From positions 229,301 to 293,300 of the forward strand of contig JBBTCT010000022.1 in the NCBI GenBank assembly GCA_038060895.1: a DNA stretch of 64,000 nt, read 5' to 3'. How positions within the stretch are numbered: position 1 is the stretch's first letter; each line of letters opens with the position of its first letter. The DNA comes from Planctomycetota bacterium (lineage in GTDB: Bacteria; Planctomycetota; MHYJ01; WSZJ01). Shown in pieces: positions 3,816 through 47,802 of this stretch. A model generated the notes under the pieces. The model was not told the DNA's origin and did not search any database. It saw only the letters and a program-made list of their open reading frames with translations. The position numbers were made by a program, and so were the translations under genes.

Positions 3816-4094
3816 ATGTCAACGCTTCCCGACCACGGCGACTTCTTCGTCAAAACCACGCTCAACGAAGACCTCAAGGCGATTCGCCAGGCCACCGAGA
3901 TGGCGAAGCAGAACCCCTCGAAGCCGGGGCACTACTGGCTGCGGGCGGTGATCAAGGGGGACGGGCCGGAAGGGAAGTTCGAGGTGATCAAGATGTATCA
4001 CGTGGACCTGAACGCGGGGATCGTGGAGATCACGGAGACGATGGAAGGCGAAGAGCGGGCGCGGCGGACGCGCAAGCTGGACGATCTGGGGTAG
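3816..4094 (+). CDS. hypothetical protein
   Basis: 92-aa ORF beginning 5 nt after the methyltransferase stop. Normal amino-acid composition (Lys/Glu-rich). No motif recognised. Confidence 0.55.
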   Translation: MSTLPDHGDFFVKTTLNEDLKAIRQATEMAKQNPSKPGHYWLRAVIKGDGPEGKFEVIKMYHVDLNAGIVEITETMEGEERARRTRKLDDLG

Positions 4095-4120
4095 GCTCGT
4101 TTGCGGCGAGGGTCGAAACG

Positions 4121-4189
4121 ATGGGCTATGACGAAAAGCTGGCCGGCCGGATTGCCGGGAAGCTCGACGGGAAGAAGCCTCGGAAGTGA
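4121..4189 (+). pseudogene. possible TfoX-N-like gene stub (22 codons)
   Basis: The stub reads 'MGYDEKLAGRIAGKLDGKKPRK*'. It resembles the first ~15 residues of TfoX/Sxy N-domain proteins (MAYDEELAERIR..) and then stops. Confidence 0.25.
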
Positions 4190-4242
4190 GCGGCCCGCGG
4201 AACCGATCAGGCTTTCGCCGCACGAGCCGCTAACATGAGGGC

Positions 4243-5214
4243 ATGATCCGACTTGCCGCTCTCCTTCTGCCGTTCCTGGCCGGCGTTTCCGCGGCCCAGT
4301 CGCCGGCGACGCAGGTCACTTTCGAGCTGAACGACGCGTTCGTGAAAGGAAAGGCGCTGGAAGGGGTGGAGGTTTCGCTTCAGCGAAGCCCTGAAGGTCC
4401 TGTCGAGCACTCGGGGTTCACGGGCGCGGGCGGTCGCCTGGTGATCATCGTGGAGCCTGGGAAGTGGCTCGTGTCGTACCGGCTGCGCGGATACGTGCCG
4501 GTCGTGCGGAGCGAGACGGACTTTGTCCGCGGTGCGGCGATCGTGACGACGAGCCTGTCGATGAACCTTGAGAGCGAAGGGAGCGACGGCGGCCGCCGGG
4601 TCCGGATGATCCTGAACTGGGGATCCGGCGCTGACCAGGTCCGCGACCTGGATGCGCACGCGCTGTGTGTGTGCGTGCCGGCCAATCCGCACATCTACTA
4701 CCAGGCGAGGATGCACGAGGCCGGTGCGCACGAGGTGTCGCTGGATGTCGACGACCGGGACGGGGGCGGGCCGGAGACGATCACGCTACGGGATCCCACG
4801 CCGGGACAATATCGGTACTTCGTGCACAACTTCAGCGGCGCGCCGGCGCGGCTCGGCGCTTCGGACGCCGTCGTGCGCGTCCTCTCGGGGGACGAACTGA
4901 TCGGGGAATTCCGCGTGCCGCCCGACGTCGCGGAGCGGGTGTGGCGGCCGTTCAAGGCGATCGAAGTGACGCCCGAGGGAAAAGTCTGGATCGTGCCGTT
5001 CGCGGAGTCCGAACTGAAGCGCGCCGAGGACCGGCGGGCACCTGTCGGGACGTCGACGTTCCGGGAACCGGCGGATGAGGAAGGGGCGCCGGTGCGTGCC
5101 GCCGCGCCGGCGAAGAAGGACAACTCCTCTTCCTTCGGGGTCCCGATCGCCGTACTGGTTGTCGTCCTCATCATCCTGGCCGAATTGTTTTTGCGCCGCA
5201 GGCGCGCTTCCTGA
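4243..5214 (+). CDS. secreted, C-terminally membrane-anchored protein with carboxypeptidase-regulatory-like beta-sandwich region
   Basis: Signal peptide 'MIRLAALLLPFLAGVSAAQS'. C-terminal TM segment plus basic stop-transfer 'IAVLVVVLIILAELFLRRRRAS'. Beta-rich middle region. Confidence 0.75.
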   Translation: MIRLAALLLPFLAGVSAAQSPATQVTFELNDAFVKGKALEGVEVSLQRSPEGPVEHSGFTGAGGRLVIIVEPGKWLVSYRLRGYVPVVRSETDFVRGAAIVTTSLSMNLESEGSDGGRRVRMILNWGSGADQVRDLDAHALCVCVPANPHIYYQARMHEAGAHEVSLDVDDRDGGGPETITLRDPTPGQYRYFVHNFSGAPARLGASDAVVRVLSGDELIGEFRVPPDVAERVWRPFKAIEVTPEGKVWIVPFAESELKRAEDRRAPVGTSTFREPADEEGAPVRAAAPAKKDNSSSFGVPIAVLVVVLIILAELFLRRRRAS

Positions 5215-6987: not shown

Positions 6988-8313
6988 TTGCGTAAGATGC
7001 CGGGGATGCCTCTGCTTCGCCGCCCGGGCTGGATCTGCGCCGCCGTCGCGCTCGCTTGCCTTGCCGGATGCGGGCAGAAAAAGCCGGCCGCATCCCGAAC
7101 TTCTTCGCCGGCGCCTCAGGAAATCACCGAACTCGACGCGGGGGAGCTCTTCACGAAGCTTCTTCCCGAAGGACTCCAGGCGCGCGTCACCCGCCGCGAG
7201 TACGCAGGCTACCGCGAGGGAGGCGTCTTCGTCATCGACGGCGACTACCAGTTCTTCCTCACCGTCATCAACAGCACGGCCGCGCCGGCGCGTGCGACGT
7301 GCCCGAAGTACCTGCTCGGCAAGGGCGAGGGGTGGAGGAACCCCAATCCGGGCGAAGGGCGGGAGCCGGAGTTCCTCTATTTCATGGTCGTCCGCGACCG
7401 GGAACTGCGGATCCCCGCGGGACAGGAGACGCGCGTTGAGCTCCGTGAAGCGCATTACCTGGGCAACGTAAACCGACCGCCCTATTTCGGGCCGGGGACG
7501 GAGCCGGAGCTGCGGATCTCGGTGCCGGCTGCGGATTCGCAGTATGTCAGAGCCGCTGAAGCGCTCGAAGCCCTGAAACCGTCGCTGGCGCCCTGGTTCC
7601 CGGGCCTCGCTTTCAGCCTCATTTCCGACGCGTCCCCCGACGAGATCCAGCGCAAGCGAATCCTGGCGTGGGAGTGGGTCGGGCTGAAGAGGCTTCGCGA
7701 GGCGCTGGAAGGGGCCGGTGTCCGGCCGCGGCAGGCATCGTCCTTCGAGGAGGCCGCGAAAAAGCGCGAGGGCATTCTCGGGAAGCTGCGCGCGGCCGTT
7801 GACGCCGCCGAGGCGATCCGCGCGGTGGACGAGCGATCGTGCGCCGGCGACGTCGAGGTCGCCGTCGCGGTCGCAGCTTTCCTCAAGCCGGAAGCCGACC
7901 GGACGGAGAAGTCACCGCTTCCCCTGGTCCTGGGCCGCCTCAAGGTCCGCGACCCCCGCATTCTCGACCGGCTCTTCGAATTCGCCCTGCGCGACGGCCA
8001 CGAATTCAGCCGCGTGCAGGCGGCCATGGAGGGAGCGAAGCTCGGCGACCCCCGGTGCATTCCGCTGCTCGTGCAGTACAGCCGGAACCCGGCCATGGCC
8101 GATGGCGACGTGGCGAAACTGGCCCAGGAATGCACCGGCACGCTGGTCGAGTTGTGGGAAGCGCAGGGAAAGTTCGCGCGGGGAGGGAAATGGAAAGAAG
8201 CCATCGACCGCTTCGGCGGCCTGGATGCCCCCGATCTGGCGGCCGTCCCGCAGGGGCAGCTCGCCGAGCTCAGGACCTTCCTCGAGTCCGGAAAAAACCT
8301 CCGCAGGAAATAG
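6988..8313 (+). CDS. lipoprotein, helical-repeat (HEAT-like) C-terminal half
   Basis: Lipobox 'LACLAGCGQ'. Helical repeats near 'PLLVQYSRNPAMADGDVAKLA'. The start is probably ATG 7006 (see the leaderless finding). Confidence 0.7.
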   Translation: MRKMPGMPLLRRPGWICAAVALACLAGCGQKKPAASRTSSPAPQEITELDAGELFTKLLPEGLQARVTRREYAGYREGGVFVIDGDYQFFLTVINSTAAPARATCPKYLLGKGEGWRNPNPGEGREPEFLYFMVVRDRELRIPAGQETRVELREAHYLGNVNRPPYFGPGTEPELRISVPAADSQYVRAAEALEALKPSLAPWFPGLAFSLISDASPDEIQRKRILAWEWVGLKRLREALEGAGVRPRQASSFEEAAKKREGILGKLRAAVDAAEAIRAVDERSCAGDVEVAVAVAAFLKPEADRTEKSPLPLVLGRLKVRDPRILDRLFEFALRDGHEFSRVQAAMEGAKLGDPRCIPLLVQYSRNPAMADGDVAKLAQECTGTLVELWEAQGKFARGGKWKEAIDRFGGLDAPDLAAVPQGQLAELRTFLESGKNLRRK

Positions 8314-42817: not shown

Positions 42818-43285
42818 TTACTCTTTACCGCCGCAGCACTTCTTGTACTTCTTGCCGCTCCCGCAAGGGCACGGATCGTTGCGGCCGAGAGGCGCGCCCG
42901 CATTCTTGAAAGGCGTTCCCTCGGGTTTCGCCTGCTTTTCGAACGCCGCGGTGAGCGCGCCGGCGTAGGTGGCGAGCTGGCGGCCGCCGTAGAGGCGACC
43001 CTCGGATTCCAGGAATTCGAGGAAGGCGCCGACGAGGTGGGGGACGGAGGCGCGCGCTTCGGGTGGAAGGGCAAGCCGGGCGAGGCCGGTGAGGAGGCCG
43101 TTTCTGACGGAGAGTTCGTCGAGATCGCCGGGAGAAACGGAGGCGCACGCCGTTTCCATGAAGGCCATGAGGAGCGGGGCGGCGTCCAGATCGGGGCGTG
43201 CGCGGAAGGGGCGGAAGGGAGTGGACTCGAGGAAGTCAGCGATCCAGGCTTCGACGCTGTCGCGTTCGAACGTTTCCATGGGCAA
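42818..43285 (-). CDS. SEC-C motif protein
   Basis: C-terminal '[18 protein letters not shown]'. Confidence 0.8.
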
Positions 43286-43426
43286 AGCATCGTACGCGCG
43301 GGGCTGCTGTCGCGCGAGTGGCAGGGGGAATAGTCGCCGGAACGCTCAGCCGAGATCGTATAAAATAAGTACTCTGCGCTGCTTAATGATATGCGTGGCT
43401 GGAGTCTGACGCACAGCGAATTTCAA

Positions 43427-43447
43427 CGGGATTATGCACTTGACAAA
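43427..43447. repeat. left terminal inverted repeat CGGGATTATGCACTTGACAAA
   Basis: Exact reverse complement of 45542-45562. Confidence 0.95.
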
Positions 43448-43522
43448 CTTAAAATCCATGAACGAAACTCGTACAGGCATCATGGTTTGCGTCGATTATG
43501 GCCCCGCGATTAAACGAATAAG

Positions 43523-43557
43523 AAAATCGCCAGAGTCCCGTTTCAGGACGCGATTTT
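43523..43557 (-). terminator. intrinsic-terminator-like hairpin after the 42-aa ORF
   Basis: AAAATCGC...GCGATTTT, with inner GTCC/GGAC pairing. On the minus strand it is followed by TTTTCTTATT. Confidence 0.5.
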
Positions 43558-43573
43558 GGCCCGCGACGAGGAT

Positions 43574-43702
43574 TCAGGACTTACGGCGAGGTTTCCCGGC
43601 CTTCTTAGCCCGCTTCAGGGGGGGTGTAGCGAGGGCCTTCCGGATCATGGCGTCGAAGTCCACGCGGGTCACTTCTCGGTGGCTCTCTGGCTTGGGTTTC
43701 AT
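43574..43702 (-). CDS. small basic protein (42 aa), IS cargo
   Basis: 'MKPKPESHREVTRVDFDAMIRKALATPPLKRAKKAGKPRRKS'. SD AAGGAG lies 8 nt upstream and a terminator hairpin lies downstream. The ORF is below the track's size cutoff. Confidence 0.45.
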   Translation of the reverse strand: MKPKPESHREVTRVDFDAMIRKALATPPLKRAKKAGKPRRKS

Positions 43703-43749
43703 CTATCTATCTCCTTGGGGGTTATCAGGCTGATTCCCCTAGAAAGTAT

Positions 43750-43778
43750 TTGACAGCGTCTGCGGCGCAGCTTAGGAT
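43750..43778 (+). promoter_or_regulatory. sigma-70-like promoter TTGACA-N17-TAGGAT
   Basis: -35 at 43750-43755, -10 at 43773-43778. ATG 43786 starts 7 nt after the -10, a leaderless geometry. Confidence 0.5.
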
Positions 43779-43785
43779 TTCCCAG

Positions 43786-44175
43786 ATGCGAAGGAACAAC
43801 AAGATCGTGAGCCTTGGAGAGGAAATCGCGGCGAAGCGCCGGGAGCTGGCGGCGCTTGAGGCCGAACTTGACATCGAAGTCAGGCGGTATAGCGGTGGTC
43901 ATGCGAAGGCTCCACAAGCGGTGGTGACACCGCCTAGACCTGCGGACCCTGAAGAGGTCCTTCTGAGTGATGCCATCATCGCTGGCAAGGTGGTGCCTCT
44001 CTTGGACAGGGAGCCGGATCGGGTGTTCACCGTGGATGATATCACAAGATTGACCGGAGTGCCGCGCCACCTTCTGGTGATGTCTATCGGGCGCATGGTG
44101 CGCTGGCACAAGGTCCACAAAGTGGAAGCTGGCAAGTACAAGGCATCCACGGTTAAGAAAGCGATGGAGGGATAA
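43786..44175 (+). CDS. IS cargo protein: coiled-coil N-terminus + possible winged-helix C-terminus
   Basis: 'MRRNNKIVSLGEEIAAKRRELAALEAELD...FTVDDITRLTGVPRHLLVMSIGRMVRWHKVHKVEAGKYK'. The track starts it at TTG 43750, which coincides with the -35 box. Confidence 0.6.
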   Translation: MRRNNKIVSLGEEIAAKRRELAALEAELDIEVRRYSGGHAKAPQAVVTPPRPADPEEVLLSDAIIAGKVVPLLDREPDRVFTVDDITRLTGVPRHLLVMSIGRMVRWHKVHKVEAGKYKASTVKKAMEG

Positions 44176-44182
44176 AGAAAAA

Positions 44183-44203
44183 CCCTCGGTCGTTGGCCGA
44201 GGG
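44183..44203. other. hairpin CCCTCGG-N7-CCGAGGG between the cargo ORF and the first tRNA
   Basis: Read directly. An A-run lies on the + side and a T-run on the - side, so a terminator function would be leftward only. It could instead be a processing or stability element. Confidence 0.4.
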
Positions 44204-44215
44204 TGTACGTCGGTT

Positions 44216-44307
44216 GGAGAGGTGTCCGAGTGGCTTATGGTGCTGGTTTCCAAAACCAGTGAACGGTGGTGACACACCGTCCGAGGGTTCGACTCCCTCC
44301 CTCTCCG
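44216..44307 (+). tRNA. type II tRNA, Ser-like body (G73, long variable arm), anticodon CCA
   Basis: Manual cloverleaf. Acceptor GGAGAGG/CCTCTCC. D-arm TCC-GAGTGGCTTAT-GGT. Anticodon stem CTGGT/ACCAG with loop TTCCAAA. 23-nt variable arm (ACGGTG-GTGACA-CACCGT). T-arm GAGGG-TTCGACT-CCCTC. Discriminator G. No encoded CCA end. Confidence 0.8.
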
Positions 44308-44325
44308 TTTTGCTGTTCTGAGGCT

Positions 44326-44420
44326 GGCCGGGTGGCGGAACTGGTTTACGCGCCCGACTTGGAATCGGGTGGTTGTCTCTTGACGGGGGCACCATGCGGG
44401 TTCGAATCCCGTCCCGGTCA
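44326..44420 (+). tRNA. type II tRNA, Leu-like body (A73, GGCGGAAYTGGT D-arm), anticodon UGG
   Basis: Manual cloverleaf. Acceptor GGCCGGG/CCCGGTC (one G.U pair). D-arm GCG-GAACTGGTTTA-CGC. Anticodon stem CCCGA/TCGGG with loop CTTGGAA. ~26-nt variable arm. T-arm GCGGG-TTCGAAT-CCCGT. Discriminator A. Confidence 0.75.
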
Positions 44421-44484
44421 GTCTCATTTTTGAAAGATCGAAGCGCCTTTGCGAAGTGCTTGAGGCTGGCGCGTGTCAAAAGAA

Positions 44485-44528
44485 TACAACAAGACTGGGT
44501 GCGTGTCAACTTGCGAAATTGACGCACC
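44485..44528 (-). terminator. hairpin plus T-rich tract downstream of the transposase
   Basis: GGTGCGT(GT)CAA-N9-TTGACGCACC (44498-44528). On the minus strand it is followed by CAGTCTTGTTGTATTCTTTTG. Confidence 0.45.
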
Positions 44529-44541
44529 GCGCCAACTCTGA

Positions 44542-45495
44542 CTAGCGCTTCACATCCCGCTTTGGCGCTTCCAGAGTGAGGCGTTTTCCTTCGGTGCGCT
44601 GGATCGCGTCGAGCATCTTCGCCCCGTCTGACTTCTTCCGGTTGTTGAACGTCCAGAGGTAGGAATCGAGGTACTTCGGAAGGTAGTCATGCCCAACGCC
44701 GTGGAAGATGCCCACGATGGAAGTCTTGAAGTTGGCGAAGAGGCCCTCAACGCCGTTCGTCGTGACGTCCCCACGGGCGTACTCTTCGATGGAGTGGTTG
44801 ACGGTTTCATGCTTCACCATCATCCGCCCTGGCGTGACGTACAGCTTGGATTCGTCTGAGTGAAGCACCGTCCGCTTGGGATCAACGTTCTTCATTACGA
44901 AGCGGCGGATGTCCCGCGCGTTGGCCTTGGGCGCTGGCTTGACGACGGCACGCGCGGACCCTCCACGCTGAACCAGCGCCAGCACGGTTGACTTCTTCAC
45001 GGCCTTGCCACGGCGCGATCCGCGCCCCTTGTGGCCGAAGTAGGTTTCGTCCGCTTCGATGATCCCGGCGAGTGGTGACTTGTCGGAGTTCTGGAGAGCG
45101 TGGCGCACCCGATGGCAGAGAAACCACGCGGTGCGATAACTGCCGAGTTCAAGGTGCCGCTGGATTGCCAGCGCCGAGATTCCTGTCTTGCTGGACGAAA
45201 TGAGGTAGAAGGCCAGCAGCCACTTGTTGAGCGGGATGTGGCTGTCCTCGAAGATCGTGCCAACGGTGCAAGTGAACTGCTTCCGGCACGCCACGCAGAA
45301 CAGCAGCCCCTTGCGAATCTTCTTCTCCGCGTCTGGCTTGAGCCGGGCGACCTTCTCGCGTTCGGTGCAGCCACAGTGCGGGCAAACGGGGCCAGAGGGC
45401 CAGCGCACCGCTTCGATGTAGTTACGCGCGGCGTCCTCGTCTGGGAAGAGAGAGAAGATGTTCGTCAGGCTCACGGCATCGGGCGTCGGGATCAT
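44542..45495 (-). CDS. IS1595-family (ISXO2-like) DDE transposase with N-terminal zinc ribbon
   Basis: 'RWPSGPVCPHCGC...LLFCVACRKQFTCTVGTIFEDSHIPLNKWLLAFYL', 'DETYFG', 'VLHSDESKLY' and 'TNGVEGLFANFK'. SD AAGGAG. Confidence 0.92.
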   Translation of the reverse strand: MIPTPDAVSLTNIFSLFPDEDAARNYIEAVRWPSGPVCPHCGCTEREKVARLKPDAEKKIRKGLLFCVACRKQFTCTVGTIFEDSHIPLNKWLLAFYLISSSKTGISALAIQRHLELGSYRTAWFLCHRVRHALQNSDKSPLAGIIEADETYFGHKGRGSRRGKAVKKSTVLALVQRGGSARAVVKPAPKANARDIRRFVMKNVDPKRTVLHSDESKLYVTPGRMMVKHETVNHSIEEYARGDVTTNGVEGLFANFKTSIVGIFHGVGHDYLPKYLDSYLWTFNNRKKSDGAKMLDAIQRTEGKRLTLEAPKRDVKR

Positions 45496-45520
45496 GGGCG
45501 TCTCCTTTGAGTACGCCTAA

Positions 45521-45549
45521 AAGATACTAGATCATGCTTGTTTTGTCAA
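45521..45549 (-). promoter_or_regulatory. transposase promoter candidate, -35 TTGACA inside the right IR, N17, -10 TATCTT
   Basis: Minus-strand reading gives TTGACA (45549-45544), a 17-nt spacer and TATCTT (45526-45521). Confidence 0.5.
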
Positions 45550-45562
45550 GTGCATAATCCCG
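45542..45562. repeat. right terminal inverted repeat TTTGTCAAGTGCATAATCCCG
   Basis: Exact reverse complement of 43427-43447. Confidence 0.95.
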
Positions 45563-45721
45563 ATTTCAAGCTTAACATTATGATATTAAATAAGTTATGA
45601 CACATTGTCTGCAACGGTTCATTCGGCACGTGCGTTGCAATTCAATCTTGACGCGACCTGATCAACGAACGGTTGCGGCCTTCACTTCCCAAACAACAAC
45701 TCACCGATCGGAGAACGACCC

Positions 45722-46261
45722 ATGAGCAACACATTGGACACAACCATCCGGGTTCAGTGGTCCCCGGCCCCCGGCTCCCCCGAAGCCCTTTCTTCCAACC
45801 GCCGTCTCTCGAAGCTCGCCGCTGCGGCGCTTCACTGCGCCTGGCTGTCCTACATCGCGGCGCTCTTCCTTCCTGCCGCTGTCTACACACCCGGCTACCT
45901 GTGCCTGCTCGGGTCGGCCGTTTCGGTGGTGGTTCTCTGCCTGGGCTCGGTCTCCGCGCTCGTTCCCGCGCTTCTGTTCATCCCGAACCTGGCGATGCTC
46001 CTGAGCCCGATGGTCCTGGCGCGGTCCGTGCGTCGCGGCCGCATGATGCAGGTCCTGAGCGGGCTCAGCGTGGCCGGCGCCATCCTGACCGTTTCGTGCG
46101 GCGCGCTGATCTGCTCCCAGGGGCTCGACACCGGCGGCTGCGGCGGCACGGGCGGACGGAACTCCGATCCGGAGATCGGGTTCTTCATGTGGGTCGTGTC
46201 GGCGGTCTTCCTCGCGGCCGGCACGGTCCTCGCCCGCCGGTCGGAAGGCGCCGCGAAGTAA
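45722..46261 (+). CDS. multi-pass membrane protein, hypothetical
   Basis: Four or more hydrophobic segments, including 'AAALHCAWLSYIAALFLPAAV', 'LLGSAVSVVVLCLGSVSALVPALLFI' and 'FFMWVVSAVFLAAGTVL'. SD GGAGAA. Confidence 0.65.
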   Translation: MSNTLDTTIRVQWSPAPGSPEALSSNRRLSKLAAAALHCAWLSYIAALFLPAAVYTPGYLCLLGSAVSVVVLCLGSVSALVPALLFIPNLAMLLSPMVLARSVRRGRMMQVLSGLSVAGAILTVSCGALICSQGLDTGGCGGTGGRNSDPEIGFFMWVVSAVFLAAGTVLARRSEGAAK

Positions 46262-46811: not shown

Positions 46812-47162
46812 ATGACGACAAGTTCCCTGCCGACGCCGACGGGCGAATCCGTTCCCATGACCAGCTTCCCGGCCTCTGCGCTCAAGAACTCCGCTGCGGA
46901 TGTCCTGGAGATGGTCCTGACCTCCGGCGCCGTTGTCATCACCCGACACGGCAAGGAGAAGGCCGTGATCCTGTCCGTCGAAGCCTACCGGCGACTCGTG
47001 GCTTCCCGCCGCGACGACCTGGACGTTCTACGCGCAAAATTCGGCGGGCTGCTAGCCAGAATGCAGACTCCCGCTGCGCGAAAGGGCGCACGGGCCGCCT
47101 TCGACGCTTCGCCGGATGAAATGGGCAAAGCAGCCGTAAAGGCGGCGCGCCGCCGTGGCTGA
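46812..47162 (+). CDS. Phd/YefM-type antitoxin
   Basis: 'SALKNSAADVLEMVLTSGAVVITRHGKEKAVILSVEAYRRL'. SD AGGAGG. It overlaps the toxin gene by 8 nt. Confidence 0.75.
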   Translation: MTTSSLPTPTGESVPMTSFPASALKNSAADVLEMVLTSGAVVITRHGKEKAVILSVEAYRRLVASRRDDLDVLRAKFGGLLARMQTPAARKGARAAFDASPDEMGKAAVKAARRRG

Positions 47163-47802
47163 CCGCCGCGCCGTCATCACCGTGCTCGCCGGCACGAATG
47201 GCGCCGGCAAGAGCAGCATTGCAGGAGCCACGATTCGTTCGCGCCAGGCGGACTACTACAACCCTGACGAAGCGGCGCGCGCTCACAAGGAAGCGCATCC
47301 GGAGGCGACTGCCGAAGAAGCGAACGCCGCTGCGTGGGAATTCGGCCGCCGCATGCTCGAAGAGGCCGCTCGTGAGCGGAAGAACTTCGCCTTTGAAACG
47401 ACACTGGGCGGCAACACGATCATGTTTCTTCTTGAGAATGCAGCGAATTCCGGTTTGGACGTGCGGATCTGGTACACCGGACTTGCTTCAGTCGAGTTGC
47501 ACCTCAAACGCGTCCGGCAACGGGTCCGCCTGGGAGGTCACGACATTCCCGAGGAAATGATCCGGCGCCGCTATGAGAACGGGCCCCGGAACCTGATCCG
47601 CCTCATGCCGAAGCTCGCCTCGCTGCGCGTCTACGACAACAGTGCCGCAGGGGATCCCGCCGCGGGAGTGGCTCCGAAACCAGTTCTTGTTCTGCAGATG
47701 GAAAAGGGCCGAATTGCCGGGCCGAAGGATCTGTCCCGGACTTCCGAATGGGCGAAATCGATCGTCGCGCGGGCCATGGAACTTCACTCGGCGCCCAGGT
47801 AG
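47155..47802 (+). CDS. zeta-toxin-family P-loop kinase
   Basis: '[15 protein letters not shown]' (Walker A) and 'FAFETTLGG'. About 215 aa. GTG start. Confidence 0.75.

Follow-up and report, generated by a model that had tools for sequence, protein, structure and literature searches.

Insertion sequences (IS) of the IS1595 family typically duplicate 8 bp of their target, and 7 to 9 bp in some subgroups, and elements of the ISNwi1 type reportedly carry passenger genes, as Siguier, Gagnevin and Chandler are said to have described in 2009 and as ISfinder/TnPedia is said to record. Anticodon mutants of tRNA-Leu such as Escherichia coli supP are leucine-inserting nonsense suppressors. Natural mistranslating tRNAs are known from only a few isolated cases. 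Allo-tRNAs, found mostly in soil Acidobacteria, have an 8/4 or 9/3 acceptor/T-stem geometry; their serine-identity versions mistranslate and are toxic in E. coli, and irregular tRNAs from soil lie near toxin-antitoxin genes, one pseudogene overlapping a transposon-related open reading frame (ORF) (Mukai et al., 2017; PMC5389517). The tRNAProX/ProRSx pairs of Streptomyces and Kitasatospora join the body of a tRNA-Pro to anticodons for Ala, Asn or Thr (Vargas-Rodriguez et al., 2021; reviewed in PMC11415595), and the nev-tRNAs of nematodes are class II, Leu-type tRNAs that receive leucine although their anticodons are for Gly or Ile (Hamashima et al., 2012; PMC3333845). For bacteria, a 2024 review names tRNAProX, tRNA-Sec/Cys hybrids and 'additional tRNAs with mismatched identities' as the known cases (PMC11415595). 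Here, a 64,000-nt stretch of a Planctomycetota genome (the window, to which all coordinates refer unless a related locus is named) was found to contain an IS1595-family element of 2,136 bp at 43427-45562, in which the transposase gene converges with 1.1 kb of passenger DNA comprising, one after another, a small ORF with a basic product, a 129-aa ORF divergent from it, a hairpin and a pair of class II tRNA genes. The element adds a new member to a known IS family; its tRNA module is new among natural identity-mismatched tRNAs in that its mobile carrier is defined and its distribution is broad.

The two tandem tRNA genes, 18 nt apart, had been noticed in a first-pass annotation made from the letters of the window, and both ARAGORN, which that annotation had proposed as a check, and Rfam recovered them. 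ARAGORN labels tRNA 1 (44216-44307, plus strand, 92 nt) as tRNA-Trp(CCA), reading the Trp codon UGG, and tRNA 2 (44326-44420, plus strand, 95 nt) as tRNA-Pro(UGG), reading the Pro codons CCR. With 48.8 and 55.5 bits, respectively, both belong to the Rfam tRNA family (RF00005), for which the gathering score is 29, and both fold into a full-length canonical cloverleaf with a 7-bp acceptor stem, a 5-bp T stem and a long variable arm; the 3' CCA is encoded in neither gene. The body of tRNA 1 is that of a tRNA-Ser: it is class II, with G73, a 23-nt variable arm and a Ser-type D-arm with C11:G24, and its first 25 nt, GG(A/T)GAGGTGTCCGAGTGGCTTA..., are almost identical to annotated E. coli tRNA-Ser(GGA), while its anticodon loop UUCCAAA presents CCA instead of the NGA or GCU of serine isoacceptors. 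Likewise, tRNA 2 has the class II shape, the A73 and the Leu-type D-arm (GUGGCGGAACUGGUUUACGC / GTGGCGGAACTGGTTTACGCGC) of a tRNA-Leu, together with a 25-nt variable arm and A37 in the loop CUUGGAA, and carries UGG rather than NAG or YAA, which makes it Leu-like in its body and not a tRNA-Leu isoacceptor. BLAST of tRNA 2 against E. coli gave no match, and its Leu-type body was instead demonstrated via the family member L065, which matches annotated E. coli tRNA-Leu over 89% of length, and via an alignment in which the D-arm pattern GTGGCGGAA(C/T)TGGT..ACGCGC is common to tRNA 2 and annotated E. coli tRNA-Leu. Compared to a native tRNA-Pro, which is class I with C1:G72, A73, G37 and NGG, tRNA 2 fits only in A73 and UGG and departs in its class II shape, G1:C72 and A37; the normal tRNA-Pro genes in the related loci L084 and L089 show the native pattern. 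Each of the two anticodons is one position-35 change away from one cognate to its body (CGA to CCA and UAG to UGG). Judged by their sequences, the two genes are thus Ser- and Leu-type class II bodies with switched anticodons and not an ordinary tRNA-Trp and tRNA-Pro, a point that the first-pass annotation had missed. A search of the GTDB species genomes, whose representatives include neither the window genome nor that of the sister element described below, for the exact pattern of tRNA 2 gave no match.

The carrier of these genes is a complete IS1595-family transposon that is probably still active. Its left terminal inverted repeat, CGGGATTATGCACTTGACAAA (43427-43447, plus strand), which also ends the sister element L002 and many relatives, is matched at 21 of 21 positions by the right one (45542-45562, minus strand), its exact reverse complement, and the match stops at 21 bp with no extension beyond. 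Within the 64-kb window the 21-mer, allowing up to three mismatches, occurs at these two sites only, none being expected in 100 shuffles. Direct reading places the identical target-site duplication ATTTCAA at 43420-43426 and 45563-45569, abutting both outer ends, as had been claimed from the letters and as was still there on re-inspection; its length is 7 bp and cannot be read as 8 bp. The transposase gene (44542-45495, minus strand) is intact and encodes 317 aa with the IS1595-type DDE domain (DDE_Tnp_IS1595, PF12762, E 2.3e-29) and N-terminal zinc ribbon (Zn_ribbon_IS1595, PF12760, E 5e-12) of the family, scores 194 bits against a cut-off of 75 in the NCBIfam model transpos_IS1595 (NF033547), and keeps the CxxC...CxxC zinc ribbon, D149, D214, N247 and E250 invariant in an alignment with 26 relatives (27 sequences). 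NCBI annotates the exact protein as belonging to a Planctomycetota metagenome-assembled genome. A promoter-like site found by consensus scan, TTGACA-17-TATCTT (45521-45549, minus strand), has its -35 box inside the right repeat, and the G+C content is 0.53-0.62 within the element vs. 0.64-0.70 in the flanks. In all these respects, from the repeats and the transposase half to the -35 box and the lower G+C content, the first-pass annotation proved accurate. The element may belong to the ISNwi1 subgroup, as its ends, CGGGATTAT..., fit the end consensus ggnnatTAT of that subgroup.

The whole 2,136-bp unit was inserted once, at an AT-rich intergenic site. A conceivable objection, raised in the first-pass annotation, is that a short IS stops right behind the transposase gene, the left repeat being part of an unrelated, second and degraded copy. 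Such a two-element origin, which has its a priori possibility in its favor, is refuted to the extent that we regard it as extremely improbable: no third copy of the repeat exists in the window even at three mismatches, the matching 7-bp duplication lies at the outer ends, the search for further copies that had been suggested yielded L002 and dozens of relatives with the same long architecture and with duplications at their outer ends (ends mapped in 58 of 80 relatives), and identical copies in a Bryobacteraceae chromosome have the whole unit in common. The claim that the element had moved as one unit together with its passenger DNA was thereby borne out. Look-ups of an empty target site with the transposase and the flanking 179-aa gene gave only the same filled locus, and in addition a 780-bp contig that ends 17 bp short of that flanking gene; the exact proteins were met again in assemblies from Hainich groundwater.

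The combination of transposase and tRNA recurs across the IS clade. Species-representative genomes were searched with the transposase alignment and 80 loci with 40-47% identity were kept (related loci are designated L002 and so on); element ends, mapped by script in 58 of them, resemble CGGGATTATGCACTTGACAAA, enclose 1.7-4.5 kb and are mostly flanked by 8-bp duplications. These long sizes imply that the whole clade carries passenger DNA. Odd tRNAs, detected by ARAGORN, by a covariance model built from 12 tRNAs and by a simple cloverleaf scan, are present in about 26 of the 80 relatives and lie inside the ends of 18 of the 58 end-mapped elements; their anticodon is mostly UGG, and CGG, AGG, CUA and UUA also occur. 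Leu-type bodies carry UGG in the window, L002, L018, L021, L024, L025/L026, L032, L078, L080 and L084, CGG in L065, AGG in L057, CUA in L035 and L041, and UUA in L074. UGG also occurs on a class I body in which the D and T loops are unusual (L019, L020, L023, L030, L031, L033 and L060), mostly in Verrucomicrobiota, and there are single cases of a Ser-type body with G73 and UAG (L052) and of a class I body with GCU (L048, 6341-6413, plus strand). Nearly all anticodons are a single position-35 change away from Leu or Ser anticodons (UGG, CGG, CUA and UUA on Leu bodies, CCA and UAG on Ser bodies), AGG being the exception with two changes from the usual GAG. The hosts belong to Verrucomicrobiota, Acidobacteriota, Planctomycetota, Actinomycetota and Alphaproteobacteria, and the Bryobacteraceae complete chromosome holds at least three copies, two of which are 100% identical over the 2,118 bp that reach from the repeat through the tRNA. 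The reverse search, in which metagenome contigs were scanned for a Leu-type D-arm followed by a UGG anticodon loop, gave at least 120 contigs; among the matches listed, an IS1595 transposase is encoded on 59 of 120 mostly short contigs and on 23 of the 33 that extend at least 1.5 kb to both sides. Two layouts recur: the tRNA is either convergent and just past the transposase stop, as in the window, or lies 160-240 bp upstream on the same strand. Because of this recurrence in many elements, the Leu-type UGG tRNA is a recurrent component of the IS clade and not incidental cargo, which had escaped the first-pass annotation.

Further tRNA-like sequences were observed in the same set. Short pieces in four unrelated loci (L035, 3881-3949; L085, 3880-3949; L074, 4985-5054; L049, 5037-5098) adjoin the transposase gene and have a G-rich acceptor strand, a perfect T-arm (GGGGTTCGATTCCCC) and an encoded CCA end; their covariance-model scores are weak (E 0.08-0.35) and the motif recurs. 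L046 has a class I tRNA with a 26-nt insertion in the anticodon loop (7536-7629, minus strand) inside the IS near its right end, and L115 a second UGG tRNA in tandem (4007-4091, minus strand). In L156, a related element or contig, a class II G73 body carries the mismatched anticodon UAU (4146-4231, minus strand), which is the commonest anticodon among allo-tRNAs (PMC5389517).

The cloverleaf pairing and the anticodon loop of the Leu-body/UGG tRNA are under clear selection. An alignment of 12 Leu-type tRNAs from IS elements has double changes, with compensation, at 19 of its 24 pairs, and among 85 distinct metagenome members 97.5% of the cells are paired and 22 of 24 pairs show double changes. 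The covariation score of these members is 0.683, whereas shuffles gave 0.154 and sliding the partners no more than 0.145. Every one of the 73 distinct high-scoring members has A73, and pair 1:72 is G:C in 62 and C:G in 7 of these; the variable arms range from 12 to 44 nt across family members. The same pattern is seen between the window and its closest relative, L002, the transposase of which (P0002) shows 75% identity and which was found on contigs from other samples and at a different site. There, the same repeats (20 of 21 positions) and an 8-bp duplication (TGACATTG) surround 2,933 bp with homologous cargo, namely a 30-aa ORF, a 132-aa ORF and a Leu-type tRNA. Relative to tRNA 2, all five anticodon-stem pairs and one acceptor pair of the L002 tRNA have changed and are fully compensated, and the loop CUUGGAA (CTTGGAA) is unchanged. 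L002 moreover contains, between transposase and tRNA, an extra 160-aa ORF (7183-7674, minus strand) that matched no Pfam, NCBIfam or PADLOC model. At the position of the Ser-type tRNA it has a long-stemmed multi-helix RNA fold (7975-8085, minus strand; -47.5 kcal/mol, z = -3.0) that fits no Rfam family and could be a decayed tRNA.

The protein-coding part of the passenger DNA starts with the divergent pair of small ORFs that had been pointed out before. The 42-aa basic ORF (MKPKPESHREVTRVDFDAMIRKALATPPLKRAKKAGKPRRKS; 43574-43702, minus strand) is called as a gene in public assemblies and has no Pfam match; its C-terminal 28 aa are 75% identical to the 30-aa ORF at the same place in L002. The 129-aa ORF (43786-44175, plus strand) is 47% identical to the 132-aa ORF of L002 and is predicted to form a long N-terminal helix and a C-terminal winged helix (AlphaFold model, predicted local distance difference test score 72) with weak Foldseek matches to winged-helix domains (such as Z-alpha, the SelB winged helix and MarR-like folds); it is a putative regulator or nucleic-acid binder. 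It is a near-orphan: word-index searches found two clusters in 5.8 billion, and a full HMMER search of 1.84 billion representatives gave, besides the sister protein, nine weak matches only. The first-pass annotation had credited the two ORFs with their own promoter and terminator signals, which holds in part. A sigma-70-like site, TTGACA-17-TAGGAT (43750-43778, plus strand), matching the consensus at 10 of 12 positions and presumably used as a promoter, lies upstream of the 129-aa ORF and the tRNAs, and no promoter of the 42-aa ORF was identified. The sole terminator-like site between ORFs and tRNAs is a G+C-rich hairpin (44182-44204), 12 nt upstream of tRNA 1, that scores in the terminator scan on the minus strand only; as its U-tract is on that strand, transcription of the plus strand should run through it. 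In the 85 family members, the sequence immediately before the tRNAs contains no sigma-70 consensus.

What had not been recognized is that the larger of the two ORFs belongs to a recurring arrangement of a helix plus winged-helix ORF, a hairpin and a tRNA. A stable hairpin ending 8-12 nt before the tRNA is far commoner in related loci than in control windows (mean energies of -16.8 vs. -11.4 kcal/mol, p = 3e-6), and at least eight other elements have, just upstream of the tRNA and on the same strand, a 130-170-aa ORF whose product joins a coiled-coil-like helix at the N terminus to a winged helix at the C terminus and weakly matches the Pfam families HARE-HTH, PaaX and HTH_58. In three phyla, a DUF5343 ORF is found directly upstream of the Leu-type tRNA instead (L032, 5129-6037; L057, 6122-6940; L078, 6348-7079; all on the minus strand), and those of L032 and L057 have PADLOC matches (E 1e-7 to 1e-8) to the candidate defence family PDC-M34A; L078 additionally has a trypsin-like serine protease ORF after the tRNA. 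The PADLOC defence models gave no match for the window ORF or the other winged-helix ORFs. Two Verrucomicrobia elements with the class I UGG tRNA carry dCTP-deaminase-like (DCD) passengers (L023, 6414-7007; L033, 6089-6754). dCTP deaminases are known anti-phage effectors. A synthetase-like ORF was found neither in the window element nor among 20 cargo ORFs of relatives, and no synthetase or editing gene in the cargo examined.

Between the transposase stop and tRNA 2, an imperfect palindrome and a T-rich tract (44481-44530, minus strand), seen in repeat and promoter scans, likely serve as the transposase terminator. Two direct copies of GG(C/T)GCGTGTCAA in 44468-44530 together with this palindrome create a second promoter-like site, TTGACA-17-TATTCT, which overlaps the palindrome and points antisense into both tRNAs; an antisense transcript starting there would end at the 44182-44204 hairpin.

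Taken together, these features fit best with missense decoding by tRNAs that are charged according to their bodies, Trp codons being read as serine and Pro codons as leucine, a reading that we hold on balance and with modest confidence and of which we infer every step beyond the DNA. The two tRNAs and the winged-helix ORF would share one transcript started at the 43750 promoter; the tRNAs would then be freed from this mRNA-tRNA co-transcript by RNase P and 3' processing, leaving the hairpin as a protective 3' end of the mRNA, and the CCA-adding enzyme would complete their ends. Seryl- and leucyl-tRNA synthetases (SerRS and LeuRS) recognize their tRNAs without reference to the anticodon (reviewed in PMC11028032; PMC9976931), and A73 is a LeuRS determinant (PMC2377443), from which charging of tRNA 1 with serine and of tRNA 2 with leucine, and hence partial reading of the UGG codon as serine and of CCA/CCG as leucine, would be predicted. 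Charging by LeuRS is also favored for the family by the members with CUA and UUA, which cannot be substrates of prolyl-tRNA synthetase (ProRS). Mistranslation that is lethal to E. coli has been obtained with engineered tRNAs combining Ser identity with Leu anticodons (PMC5389517). The winged-helix protein would probably hold expression low or conditional. Stress-induced proteome diversification, addiction or toxicity, and a defence function are possibilities for what the element or its host might gain. Several observations weigh against missense decoding. The Leu-type tRNA of L002 is without the D-loop GG and the T-loop TPsiC, was missed by ARAGORN and fails the Rfam tRNA model at E<=1, and the Ser-type partner is barely recognizable there; such loss of the elbow motifs suggests that some of the copies, at least, may have no function in translation. 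About two-thirds of the members have A at position 37, whereas native readers of CCN and CUN have G37, and a hidden Markov model search of all ORFs in the 80 related loci found no homologues of the 129-aa ORF, so that what recurs among the analogous ORFs is the architecture and not a detectable sequence.

The determinants themselves leave room for a different outcome. UGG with A73 and CCA with G73 are the main determinants of bacterial ProRS and tryptophanyl-tRNA synthetase (TrpRS), respectively, and the window tRNAs carry exactly these, so that correct or ambiguous charging could occur: ProRS would read G35, G36 and A73 of the Leu-shaped tRNA and TrpRS the CCA and G73 of the Ser-shaped one, providing a private tRNA-Pro(UGG) and tRNA-Trp for the genes of the element, e.g., for CCA codons that are rare in a high-G+C host, or a dual identity. 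Codon usage points in this direction, since CCA makes up 6 of the 15 Pro codons of the window transposase gene as compared to 12% in the long ORFs of the window, and in UGG-bearing elements CCA accounts for 30% and CCR (CCA/CCG) for 82% of Pro codons in the transposase gene vs. 14% and 60% in the flanking host genes, a shift that is not seen in elements without the tRNA; codons that are enriched rather than avoided are unlike what self-harmful Pro-to-Leu decoding would predict. This excess, however, sits in about five alignment columns, e.g., in the N-terminal M-x-P-T-P, that are common to related elements and may thus be inherited, while conserved prolines avoid CCA (1 of 51); significant as the CCA and CCR excess is, codon co-adaptation was therefore rejected as proof of function and is suggestive only. 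Although 7 of 73 members have the C1:G72 of native tRNA-Pro, most have G1:C72, not the C1:G72 of bacterial ProRS substrates, and keep the Leu-type D-arm; furthermore, the CUA and UUA members are out of reach of ProRS, a host already has tRNA-Pro, and in L084 a normal tRNA-Pro(GGG) even adjoins the IS-type tRNA. We therefore consider correct charging unlikely, though a serious minority possibility. A rather improbable account, in which the tRNAs act as RNA parts outside translation, e.g., as an RNase P/Z processing site that insulates or shapes adjacent transcripts, as an antisense or convergent brake on the transposase, or as the RNA partner of the winged-helix protein as in type III toxin-antitoxin systems, draws on the position of the tRNA, which among the matches listed always adjoins the transposase gene (in one of the two layouts described above) and comes after an ORF and a hairpin. 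In addition, L002 keeps the helices and the anticodon loop without the elbow motifs that the ribosome and RNase P need, the winged-helix model weakly resembles RNA- and Z-nucleic-acid-binding winged-helix domains, and the irregular soil tRNAs of Mukai et al. were charged yet unused in translation, links to transposons and toxin-antitoxin genes having been suggested for them (PMC5389517). Neither a processing signal nor a decoy, however, needs the anticodon, A73, U33 and intact 7-nt loop that some 100 diverged copies have conserved; no universal tRNA feature is missing from the window copies, whose scores clearly exceed the Rfam threshold, and the near-universal position-35 changes, including two stop-codon readers, point to decoding. 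Strongly disfavoured, and very unlikely in our view, is accidental cargo, that is, captured host tRNA-Ser and tRNA-Leu genes in decay with neutral pseudogene mutations in their anticodons. The other cargo in the clade is indeed very diverse, passenger genes of various kinds are known from IS1595 subgroups, and the L002 copies look degraded. Against this stand the massive compensatory changes with 97.5% pairing over 85 distinct copies, the same anticodon on two body types and in five phyla, the IS1595 transposases recovered in most well-flanked cases by a search that started from the tRNA, and the intactness of both window genes.

Recoding of the transposase itself was considered as a reason for carrying the tRNA and was rejected: the transposase genes of the CUA- and UUA-bearing loci contain no in-frame stops, no proline is found at a conserved Leu column in the transposases of UGG-bearing elements, and the CCA-coded columns of the latter are not Leu in other elements. 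In L066, an element from Thermoguttaceae, the transposase gene (approximately 4001-4879) has a TAG codon in frame where the CRKQFT motif has its conserved Gln; no suppressor tRNA was detected in this locus, and the gene may be a pseudogene.

The IS lies in the AT-rich spacer between an ORF that ends in a SEC-C-type motif (42818-43285, minus strand) and a 179-aa membrane-like ORF (45722-46261). About 1.2 kb from its right end, at 46812-47802, lie a PhdYeFM-type antitoxin gene and, after it, a Zeta-toxin gene, as called in identical public contigs, which also supplied the Pfam matches. This pair recalls the remark of Mukai et al. that odd soil tRNAs are often found near toxin-antitoxin genes (PMC5389517).

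Compared to ISNwi1-type IS1595 elements, the window element is alike in its single zinc-ribbon DDE transposase, its (C)GGnATTAT... ends, the duplications of about 8 bp in its clade and a size swollen by passengers to well above 1.1 kb; it differs in its own duplication of 7 bp instead of 8 bp and in that the passengers so far known for the family are protein genes, whereas here a tRNA with a switched anticodon recurs. Leucine-inserting suppressors belong to the same mutation class as the Leu-type CUA and UUA tRNAs of L035, L041 and L074 with their position-35 change, but are laboratory or spontaneous chromosomal point mutants, whereas the present genes are conserved, diversified and transposon-borne. 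Allo-tRNAs and the irregular soil tRNAs are likewise bacterial, have Ser identity or long variable arms together with non-matching or suppressor anticodons, and are sometimes polycistronic (PMC5389517). Membership in the allo-tRNAs was nevertheless rejected on geometry, since the Rfam alignment and the family consensus show the window tRNAs and the Leu-type family to be canonical 7/5; moreover, the main type here is Leu-bodied with UGG, and its carrier is a defined IS1595 transposon with mapped ends and duplications. tRNAProX shares the natural bacterial mismatch of body and anticodon and a proposed deliberate mistranslation involving proline, yet follows a mirror-image logic with a dedicated synthetase paralogue, A33 and A34 and has not been reported on insertion sequences; the tRNAs described here have Leu- or Ser-type bodies and no adjoining synthetase-like ORF and do not belong to the tRNAProX/ProRSx group. 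The nearest functional analogue are the nev-tRNAs, which also combine a Leu body with other anticodons (charging of the IS-borne tRNAs being predicted only) and differ in being eukaryotic, chromosomal and lineage-restricted, with different anticodons and no link to mobile elements. Full-text searches of the literature, with subscription-only papers outside their reach, turned up neither IS1595 elements described with tRNA genes nor bacterial Leu-body/UGG tRNAs, so that the first-pass annotation, which was not aware of any described tRNA cargo for this family, stands within that literature.

In comparison to the earlier cases, what is new is the defined IS carrier with more than 100 distinct copies in five named phyla, the consistent UGG anticodon, the clear purifying selection and the recurring protein partner. 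A bolder proposal, for which we would claim only a minor chance, is that IS1595-type transposons are dedicated vehicles of a conditional recoding module, in which a winged-helix or DUF5343 protein would control a co-transcribed, Leu-charged tRNA(UGG), in the window together with a Ser-charged tRNA(CCA), and in which de-repression, e.g., by stress, phage or loss of the element, would release a flood of Pro-to-Leu and Trp-to-Ser errors; the module would then serve as an RNA toxin, for abortive infection or for diversifying the proteome, and would spread horizontally across phyla. Since these genes are now annotated as tRNA-Pro and tRNA-Trp, charging according to the body would also bear on annotation. 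Should they instead be charged correctly, they would be the first class II-shaped tRNA-Pro and tRNA-Trp and equally informative on identity rules, and the family may in addition supply compact, naturally diversified Leu-type tRNA scaffolds for code engineering. If LeuRS and SerRS do charge these tRNAs, mobile DNA would spread genetic-code ambiguity between phyla, which, if true, would bear on the origin of codon reassignments and on the costs and uses of mistranslation.

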